From: Escherichia coli
Lineage (GTDB): Bacteria > Pseudomonadota > Gammaproteobacteria > Enterobacterales > Enterobacteriaceae
Assembly: GCF_048403405.1 (NCBI RefSeq)
Contig: NZ_CP183129.1
Direction: 5' to 3' (one strand)
Length of the DNA: 64,000 nucleotides
Of this stretch, positions 19,180-20,270 are shown piece by piece. Within the stretch, counting starts at the first letter, position 1. Every line of letters starts with the position of its first letter. Made by a program: the position numbers and the translations under genes. Under the pieces are notes generated by a model, which ran no database searches, was not told the origin of the DNA, and saw nothing but the letters and a program-made list of their open reading frames with translations.

Positions 19180-19466
19180 GGCTTAGGTACCTCCCGGTTT
19201 GGCCGGGAGTTACATGACCTGAAATTCTGTATTTCGTTGCTACATTCATTCAAACCACCTGTAACAAAAAGCTGCCTTTGACGATCTATTGCTATAAATA
19301 AGTGTTCTTTTTTCTTTAATTGTTTATTTATTTTATAATAGTTAAGTTTAGCTAATCAGAATGAGCTATTTTTGATAGTTCATCCTGTGGCGTTGTCATT
19401 AAACTTATATTGTAAATTGCTTAGATTCAAATGAGATAATAATTTTGTTGAAATATGAGGTGGGAG

Positions 19467-20270
19467 ATGTTTTCTACAAACTTAATACAGAGTGATTATG
19501 GTAATTTAAATATTAAAAACCTTGCCTTCGACTCTTTCAAAGAAAGACTGCAGTCTACCATGACAGCACTCACTTTCTTTATATCAACGGGGCAATGTGA
19601 CTGCGATGAAATAGCAGAATCAAACTTTAATTATATGATTGCCTATATGTCTAACATTAACTATGATGCCTCAAAGCCAGGAGCGCCAGTACTTAGTTTT
19701 GATACATATCTGCAGGACAATGTTAAATATAGAGTAATAATTAATAATCTTTATGGTAGTGAAATTCGGATAAGAGGTATAAATAAAGATTTTATTGGAA
19801 TGGATGTCACTTCTGTATTTCGCCCAGAAAAAATGACCAATTTGATCAATATAAAAAACAGGTTGGTTATTCACTATTTAAGGACTATATACTATGAACA
19901 AAATTATATACATCCTGTCGGGAGCATTTTTGCTGCGATTCAAAAAAATGAGAGTCTCCTAAAGTTTCCTTCGATAATATCAATGCTTAATGTCAATCTT
20001 CTTTTTAATCCACTGAATCTTCCGGGAATGGGAAGTGGTGTGCTTGAAGAGATTATGAGTATTTCAGATAGTTCACTTAGAAAACGTCTTGGGTATGAGG
20101 TTTTAAGCTTTTCGCTACAGGCACATTCATTGAGTCAGGAATGTATCGATAAGTTAGCCATTTTTTTCGCTGACGATCTGTTTAAATATGAGTCAGTATG
20201 CATCGCCGCGATGGAACATTTAAAAAGTAAGGCAACGGCCCCTATACAAAACGGACCGTTGCCAGCATAA
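19467..20270 (+). CDS. ydjO: Uncharacterised protein YdjO
   Basis: ORF in a visibly AT-rich segment; start 19467 chosen for SD-like gagg 6 nt upstream (track start 19455 is in frame). Confidence 0.7.
   Translation: MFSTNLIQSDYGNLNIKNLAFDSFKERLQSTMTALTFFISTGQCDCDEIAESNFNYMIAYMSNINYDASKPGAPVLSFDTYLQDNVKYRVIINNLYGSEIRIRGINKDFIGMDVTSVFRPEKMTNLINIKNRLVIHYLRTIYYEQNYIHPVGSIFAAIQKNESLLKFPSIISMLNVNLLFNPLNLPGMGSGVLEEIMSISDSSLRKRLGYEVLSFSLQAHSLSQECIDKLAIFFADDLFKYESVCIAAMEHLKSKATAPIQNGPLPA

Follow-up and report, generated by a model that had tools for sequence, protein, structure and literature searches.

An AT-rich single-gene islet, ydjO, at the cedA/tcyP junction of Escherichia coli

In Escherichia coli K-12, the spacer between ydjO and cedA is already on record as promoter island 1811053_320, one of 78 such "promoter islands," and is marked as bound by H-NS in the ChIP-chip data of both Kahramanoglou and Oshima (PMC3661553, Table 1). 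The same table lists K-12 ydjO as predicted to be foreign by Nakamura 2004 and by Lawrence & Ochman 1998 (PMC3661553, Table 1). Genomic SELEX (Shimada 2014) placed an RpoD site and an "HNS" mark on the K-12 ydjO-cedA spacer (PMC3946193). YahL, YdjO, and YjfZ have been described as E. coli/Shigella "conserved signature proteins," and ydjO has been promoted as a universal signature gene for water-quality qPCR (PMC11057252).

Here we describe the locus in a 64-kb stretch of E. coli DNA (i.e., the window; contig NZ_CP183129.1) and compare it with its counterparts in other genomes. We consider it likely, at a probability of roughly three in four, that a single-gene AT-rich islet entered an ancient, conserved cedA/tcyP junction in the Escherichia lineage and that it is silenced by H-NS, dispensable, and spread via its flanks.

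Gene layout and base composition

The region is 100% identical in strain TUM14771, whose RefSeq annotation supplied the gene names. Together with the match of cedA to its Pfam family, this annotation showed that the katE/cedA/ydjO/tcyP neighborhood had been named correctly in the first-pass annotation, which was made without database searches. The coordinates of all features are collected in Table 1. The next gene after tcyP is ydjM, and the stop codons of ydjO and tcyP are only 3 bp apart. The annotated start of ydjO is at 19467 (MFST...) and not at the first ATG, at 19455. The divergent P0004-type allele (see below) has CTG and in-frame stops at 19455. Apart from ydjO, the only open reading frame (ORF) of at least 50 aa in the islet is a 67-aa antisense ORF nested within ydjO, and no Rfam families were found in 18600-20500.

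The intrinsic terminator of tcyP, which consists of an 11-bp stem (20231-20241/20253-20263) followed by UUACUUUUUAAAU, is embedded in the final ~15 codons of ydjO. Read on the + strand, this stem lacks a trailing T tract, so that ydjO runs up to tcyP without its own terminator. The hairpin directly downstream of cedA was found in 4299 of 4299 islet-bearing genomes and is not in the empty alleles described below. Its T tract is weak, and it is presumed to be either the cedA terminator or an RNA-stabilizing stem.

Table 1. Coordinates of features at the cedA-ydjO-tcyP locus (positions in the 64-kb window)
Feature	Position	Strand	Details and evidence
katE	16472-18733	-	Left neighbor of cedA
cedA	18916-19179	+	87 aa; Pfam PF10729, RefSeq annotation
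Islet relative to the ancestral empty site	19162-20273	.	1112 bp in place of ~64 bp
G+C-rich hairpin directly 3' of cedA	19191-19209	+	Fold of 19180-19235: -20.2 kcal/mol, z = -2.6
AT-rich upstream region, ~30% GC	19211-19466	+	Windowed GC; K-12 equivalent published
9-bp direct repeat TGACGATCT, left copy	19279-19287	+	Repeat search, scar sequence
TATAAT	19334-19339	+	Three-way DNA alignment
24-nt block CAGAATGAGCTATTTTTGATAGTT	19358-19381	+	Three-way DNA alignment
GAGGTG, Shine-Dalgarno sequence of ydjO	19457-19462	+	
ydjO	19467-20270	+	267 aa, 804 nt; RefSeq annotation of TUM14771
A7 run, +1 insertion in common pseudogene lineage	19942-19948	+	Alignment of nine alleles
T7 run, -1 frameshift in strain 118	20161-20167	+	Alignment
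9-bp direct repeat TGACGATCT, right copy	20171-20179	+	Repeat search, scar sequence
tcyP intrinsic terminator	20218-20263	-	Fold -22.4 kcal/mol, z = -4.5; terminator scan; inverted repeat
tcyP (ydjN), cystine transporter	20274-21665	-	Convergent with ydjO

The first-pass annotation had also described ydjO and its upstream region as AT-rich relative to cedA and tcyP and had proposed windowed GC and codon usage as the check; both analyses bore the description out. GC content was 0.28-0.35 in 300-bp windows over 19250-20150 versus 0.48-0.58 in cedA/katE and tcyP, and the segment 19180-20273 as a whole has 34.4% GC versus 49.3% for the 64-kb window. The ydjO islet is the lowest-GC 1.1-kb segment of the 64 kb (minimum at 19211), with 0.16% of all 1094-bp windows being equally low. 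The 287-bp cedA-ydjO spacer has 32.8% GC, and ydjO itself has a GC of 0.353 and a third-position GC (GC3) of 0.327. Codon usage was strongly atypical. The distance of ydjO from the other genes of the window ranked 3rd of 54 (z = 1.9), and the codons ATA (44.9 versus 4.6 per 1000 codons in the other window genes) and AGA (15.0 versus 1.8) were enriched 8- to 10-fold. A/T tracts of at least 8 bases occurred at 14.6 per kb in the islet versus 4.2 per kb window-wide (i.e., 3.5 times more densely).

Among the 53 long ORFs tabulated, the low GC and GC3 of ydjO were matched only by arpB-like ORFs at 27601-29500. This locus resembles ydjO in its low GC (0.36-0.40), in its GC3 (0.33-0.36), and in being disrupted (two ORFs). 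It differs in having a ShET2 enterotoxin N-terminal region and ankyrin repeats, whereas no domain is recognizable in YdjO.

The published H-NS data were obtained with K-12, from which the window's allele differs by 3.4%. In the islet, the high-affinity H-NS motif reached 2.7 per kb versus 1.7 per kb, a mild enrichment. Promoter islands are defined with PlatProm by unusually dense promoter-like signals over at least 300 bp. A strict two-hexamer sigma-70 scan, a method that differs from PlatProm, returned 3 sites versus 5.0 +/- 2.5 in shuffled sequences and thus showed no excess. The TATAAT hexamer and CAGAATGAGCTATTTTTGATAGTT are conserved in the upstream regions of the E. albertii and P0004-type alleles amid diverged sequence and are a candidate promoter or leader element. 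A search of the searchable literature found no ydjO expression data in hns mutants.

Ancestral junction and distribution of the islet

The islet junctions were aligned to those of Nissle 1917 (B2), E. whittamii, E69, E1V33, SCPM-O-B-8794, Citrobacter, Salmonella, and Enterobacter. The islet is a replacement of ~64 bp and not a pure insertion: the sequence replaced comprises 15 nt of cedA, its stop codon, and a 45-47-bp spacer with one bidirectional terminator. At the left edge, the last five cedA codons (19162-19176) read GELTE in the islet haplotype and NEVEE in the empty-site alleles. The right edge is the base directly before the tcyP stop codon (20273/20274). What the islet haplotype brings is the hairpin after cedA, the AT-rich control region, ydjO, and a tcyP terminator inside the 3' end of ydjO.

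For a wider comparison, cedA was scanned in one genome per species, and tcyP and ydjO were located in the 54 loci returned. In most of the ~45 other Enterobacteriaceae species, cedA and tcyP are directly adjacent, convergent, and ~50-110 bp apart (Citrobacter, Salmonella, Enterobacter, Kluyvera, Leclercia, Atlantibacter, and other genera). Every empty spacer inspected contained a single hairpin between A and T runs (i.e., a bidirectional terminator). The empty arrangement is also found in E. whittamii and in Escherichia sp. E1V33, E69, and SCPM-O-B-8794, and the 45-47-bp spacers of B2 E. coli and of these four Escherichia lineages are mutually homologous. These comparisons show that the ancestral state was cedA, one bidirectional terminator of ~50 bp, and tcyP.

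The islet carries no mobility genes. No tRNA genes were found within 10 kb of it, no terminal or boundary repeats were detected other than scattered 9-16-nt chance repeats, and no integrase or transposase ORF was found within it, in line with the initial remark that a flanking mobile-element signature was absent. One apparent empty site, in HH45, was rejected as a one-off. It holds a 170-bp homopolymer-rich filler that was covered to at least 80% in one other record only (60-80% identity), and it may be an assembly problem.

At the locus, 5424 of the 5426 complete E. coli genomes gave a match of any kind. The islet was present in 4299 (79%), and an ancestral-type empty junction was present in 1124 (20.7%), so that the cedA-tcyP locus in E. 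coli is essentially biallelic, either islet or empty. The first-pass annotation had proposed the distribution across phylogroups as a check, and these counts, taken over all complete genomes irrespective of phylogroup, came out in its favor. The islet carriers include K-12, O157:H7, 042, UMNK88, ATCC 8739, and BL21. Genomes with the empty junction include Nissle 1917 and O25:H4 strains; the named empty-junction E. coli that we recognized are B2 strains.

Beyond the two common alleles, three others bear on the age and mobility of the islet. Escherichia sp. MOD1-EC7003 (clade-I-like), whose flanks differ from those of E. coli by 4-5%, retains a 200-bp islet scar, and the two copies of TGACGATCT are the break points of the deletion that left it. 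In E. albertii NBRC 107761, an ORF 38-39% identical to YdjO lies at the same site, immediately after cedA. The contig of this type strain ends inside the ydjO-like ORF, and when further E. albertii sequences related to this ORF were sought, only one 79-aa fragment was found. Finally, P0004, a rare allele of E. coli, combines flanks of 1-5% divergence with an internal 600-bp block of 14-27% divergence.

Selection, decay, and homology of ydjO

In DNA of 34% GC, the chance of an 804-nt open frame is ~1e-9. Across nine alleles, the dN/dS of ydjO was 0.16-0.43 in pairwise comparisons, with a ratio of means of 0.195; elsewhere at the locus it was 0.04-0.05 (katE and tcyP) and 0.12 (cedA). A dN/dS of ~0.2 means that the frame has been under purifying selection, and the data show that ydjO encodes, or once encoded, a genuine protein and that the purifying selection on it is moderate. 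The gene is also unusually variable. Nucleotide diversity was 0.037 in ydjO and 0.033 in the upstream spacer versus 0.009-0.014 in the flanks (~3-fold), and the excess in ydjO holds at synonymous sites too.

The frame was open in 8 of 15 sampled alleles and disrupted in the other 7, by at least three different lesions. Intact alleles include those of K-12, 042, UMNK88, M8, 4973, MS 85-1, and the 64-kb window. In a common pseudogene lineage, a stop at codon 119 (19821-19823) is usually accompanied by the +1 insertion in the A7 run. Some 797 genomes share at least 99% identity with the allele that has this stop, although not all of them are broken (MS 85-1 is intact). The ydjO of O157:H7 FRIK944 is 1 bp short and annotated as frameshifted, and RefSeq notes on broken alleles read "frameshifted; internal stop." Natural IS1 insertions in ydjO were seen among E. 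coli genomes, and insertions of IS elements in the gene have been reported from O104:H4 and from a heat-evolved laboratory K-12 strain (PMC3486847, PMC10044804). One fifth of E. coli lack ydjO, and many independent events have inactivated it; the gene is thereby shown to be dispensable. It is often broken, and what might be called a silenced accessory gene thus shades into a decaying relic. The gene is not simply junk, given its dN/dS of 0.2 and the intact alleles of K-12, 042, UMNK88, M8, 4973, and the window.

Searches with the protein agreed with the first reading that the product has no recognizable domain. Nothing scored above threshold in Pfam, NCBIfam, PADLOC, or PHROGs, and a sequence profile search of the PDB gave no match. 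The best AlphaFold2 model, built on a 10-sequence alignment, had a pLDDT of 58 (~70-79 for most of residues 21-110). It predicts an N-terminal alpha/beta domain (approximately residues 18-125) and a C-terminal helical part, and fold searches with it returned only nonsignificant or generic helical-repeat matches.

No YdjO homologues beyond Escherichia were found in a word-seeded search of 5.8 billion proteins or in a full HMMER search of 1.84 billion cluster representatives. The true matches in the protein searches were E. coli proteins and fragments only; elsewhere in the genus, the relatives are the E. albertii ORF and the MOD1-EC7003 scar. An apparent remote homologue (P0033; 26% identity, E = 7e-36) proved to be a data artifact. 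It stems from Logan contig SRR33321306, which is E. coli cedA-ydjO-tcyP in which A and G have been systematically exchanged (544 A>G and 415 G>A), whereas C and T are unaffected. YahL, a signature orphan of similar length, was rejected as a paralogue (BLASTP E = 52; hhalign probability, 0.1%). There was no match to ydjO in phage records, and a plasmid origin was discarded because the three "plasmid" matches in PLSDB were mislabeled chromosomes of 4.8-4.9 Mb. Our best guess is that YdjO acts in the cytoplasm, is specific to some niche, contributes little to fitness, and is now decaying to various degrees.

Origin of the islet and comparison with known systems

Horizontal acquisition is suggested by the deviant composition of the islet together with the empty ancestral site; no foreign donor was identified among proteins, cluster representatives, or phage and plasmid records. 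The terminator region between two convergent genes would have been a harmless landing site. With 34% GC and dense A/T tracts, the islet would form a natural nucleation site for H-NS, the filaments of which would hold the ydjO promoter(s) mostly silent. Such silencing would also protect tcyP from antisense transcription by unterminated ydjO transcripts. The islet most plausibly moves when its conserved flanks undergo homologous recombination, by which it would spread and could also be lost; the divergent P0004 block in ordinary flanks and the homologous E. albertii ORF at the same site are the basis for this step. The MOD1-EC7003 scar and the E. albertii homologue indicate that the islet is probably older than E. 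coli sensu stricto. In that case, the B2 strains might have reacquired the empty allele instead of having lacked the islet from the start. The B2 junction excludes a simple deletion, because it is the ancestral sequence and not a scar.

We weighed this acquisition against other histories. It is doubtful that the islet was already present in the common ancestor of E. coli and its close relatives and was then lost from B2 and from the other lineages with an empty site (i.e., that the polymorphism reflects deletion and not gain). Both the scar and the homologous islet in E. albertii would fit such a history, but at the B2 junction, the bidirectional terminator and the 3' end of cedA match their homologues in E. 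whittamii, E1V33, and SCPM-O-B-8794 base for base, and the junction is organized as in Citrobacter, Salmonella, and Enterobacter. Deletion cannot recreate an ancestral junction; only recombinational replacement by an empty allele could. We give little credence to the idea that the AT-richness arose in place, by drift of an H-NS-bound, little-transcribed sequence to A+T under relaxed selection and mutation bias, with the ORF perhaps being a young de novo gene. Panyukov and Ozoline propose such A/T enrichment for promoter islands (PMC3661553), and the lack of any homologue outside Escherichia among the 1.84 billion representatives and a synonymous and intergenic diversity ~3-fold that of the flanks would be consistent with it. 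However, the ancestral spacer was only ~50 bp, so that 1.1 kb needed a source; moreover, so long a frame would hardly open by chance at this GC content, it is under purifying selection, and the E. albertii homologue, at 38-39% identity, implies that the coding sequence is old.

Other readings concern what the gene does. It is possible, although we consider it unlikely, that ydjO is functional and conditionally expressed and that it matters in some niche (a non-B2 host gut, stress, or conflict). H-NS would then be a regulator and not a permanent silencer, and pseudogenes and absence would reflect niche shifts. The dN/dS of ~0.2 extends across intact and recently broken alleles, the open frames among the 8 of 15 sampled alleles include very divergent ones, and conservation of the Shine-Dalgarno sequence and of the 24-nt block upstream extends to E. 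albertii. In addition, ydjO appears with ydjN in a table of serum-responsive ExPEC genes (PMC4145685), although that signal could be non-strand-specific read-through from tcyP. Conditional function is harder to reconcile with the absence of ydjO from about one fifth of E. coli, with stops or frameshifts in many others, with the tolerance of IS insertions (PMC3486847, PMC10044804), and with the lack of any phenotype or biochemical clue; a reported correlation with H2 production in the LTEE amounts to two SNPs in two clones (PMC10997342). It seems improbable that ydjO is instead a fast-evolving, Escherichia-specific gene with a conflict-related function and several deep allelic lineages shuffled by recombination at a fixed cedA/tcyP hot spot. 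Three allelic lineages are observed, namely, the common E. coli type, the P0004 type (14-27% divergent in nucleotides), and the E. albertii type (38-39% amino acid identity). If this were true, it would fit a protein that faces phages or competitors and that evolves under diversifying or balancing selection, and the presence/absence polymorphism would be part of the same dynamic.

The acquisition of a silenced islet, as preferred here, supports the interpretation given in the first-pass annotation, which in essence restates what was already known of a named K-12 gene. To this we add a modest set of points: where exactly the islet begins and ends, the form of the empty site in the ancestor, the division of E. 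coli into 79% with and 21% without the islet, the MOD1-EC7003 scar, the homologue in E. albertii, the deeply separated allele lineages, and how often the gene is a pseudogene. Clean empty and filled alleles, together with many natural knockouts, offer a convenient natural experiment on what, if anything, an H-NS-silenced orphan gene contributes.

Set beside the conserved signature proteins, YdjO agrees in being confined to Escherichia in every database searched, but its gene is absent from 1124 of the 5426 complete genomes, is often a pseudogene, and has a divergent homologue in E. albertii. Hence, ydjO does not mark E. coli universally. Nissle 1917, the empty-site genome tested, has no target for the ydjO qPCR, so the 1124 genomes with the same junction should likewise go undetected. 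Against the window's allele, the published probe shows 4 mismatches. With the gene missing in ~21% of genomes and with such mismatches, ydjO qPCR assays will undercount.

Classical genomic islands and integrative elements share with the ydjO islet a presence/absence polymorphism, a clean empty site, and a deviant composition. Unlike them, the islet has no integrase, no tRNA/att site, and no flanking direct repeats, and it is only 1.1 kb long. A close parallel is with the H-NS-silenced xenogeneic islets (Navarre, Lucchini, and Oshima) and the promoter islands of Shavkunov, Panyukov, and Ozoline, which are likewise AT-rich, codon-atypical, lineage-restricted, and without a known function. The ydjO islet differs from these in consisting of a single gene without a mobility function and in lying in the terminator region of convergent genes and not beside a tRNA, where it supplies replacement terminators for both neighbors (presumptively so for cedA). 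It may thus serve as a textbook example of a small AT-rich orphan gene that settled in a terminator "safe harbor," was bound by H-NS, and has since been decaying or been swapped by recombination.

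An A/G-exchanged contig and other public records of ydjO

The sole apparent remote homologue of YdjO, a protein from a contig in the public Logan assembly (SRR33321306), matched it with 26% identity (E = 7e-36) and was rejected because its source contig corresponds to the E. coli cedA-ydjO-tcyP locus, in which A and G have systematically traded places. Relative to the E. coli locus, A is replaced by G at 544 positions of the contig and G by A at 415; C and T are unaffected. Such A/G-exchange artefacts can mimic remote homology when protein collections are very large. Among plasmid records in PLSDB, three that bear ydjO (NZ_CP141089.1, NZ_CP134663.1, and NZ_OL790696.1) are 4.8 to 4.9 Mb in size and are evidently chromosomes misfiled as plasmids.

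At the position where ydjO would be, E. coli HH45 (NZ_CP116411.1) has a unique 170-bp filler (4052 to 4210 of the extracted locus) with many T and C homopolymers. Just one other record covered at least 80% of this filler, at 60 to 80% identity. The annotation marks the adjoining katE as truncated, and there is a remnant of IS110 close by. Either the assembly is wrong at the filler or HH45 has undergone a one-off rearrangement.

Published qPCR oligonucleotides for ydjO (PMC11057252) were compared with several alleles. Against the window allele, the forward primer, probe, and reverse primer had 1, 4, and 0 mismatches, respectively, and the intact ydjO of strain 4973 had identical mismatches. The rare allele with a divergent 600-bp block (P0004 type) showed 1 and 3 mismatches, and Nissle 1917, the sole B2 genome compared, had no target for these oligonucleotides.

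Features within and around ydjO in E. coli and E. albertii

A TATAAT motif and a 24-nt block, CAGAATGAGCTATTTTTGATAGTT, are common to the upstream regions of E. coli and E. albertii (NBRC 107761; approximately 4330 to 4375 of its locus). The surrounding sequence has diverged between the two species, with both motifs kept, and judged from sequence the pair may be a promoter or leader element of ydjO. The 67-codon antisense ORF within ydjO is probably a chance ORF, given the composition of the region. The 4 kb covered at the E. albertii locus showed no katE upstream of cedA, unlike in E. coli; the left-hand neighborhood of cedA therefore appears to differ between the species.

Window coordinates of the features discussed
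Feature	Coordinates	Strand	GC	GC3
TATAAT and CAGAATGAGCTATTTTTGATAGTT	19334-19381
Antisense ORF, 67 codons	19671-19874	-
qPCR oligonucleotide target	20110-20207
Second AT-rich islet	27601-29500	-	0.36-0.40	0.33-0.36

A second AT-rich islet

The second AT-rich islet of the window holds two overlapping ORFs, which encode the N-terminal domain of ShET2 enterotoxin (PF07906) along with ankyrin repeats. The two ORFs are a single arpB-like gene broken into two, and this split gene is probably a pseudogene.
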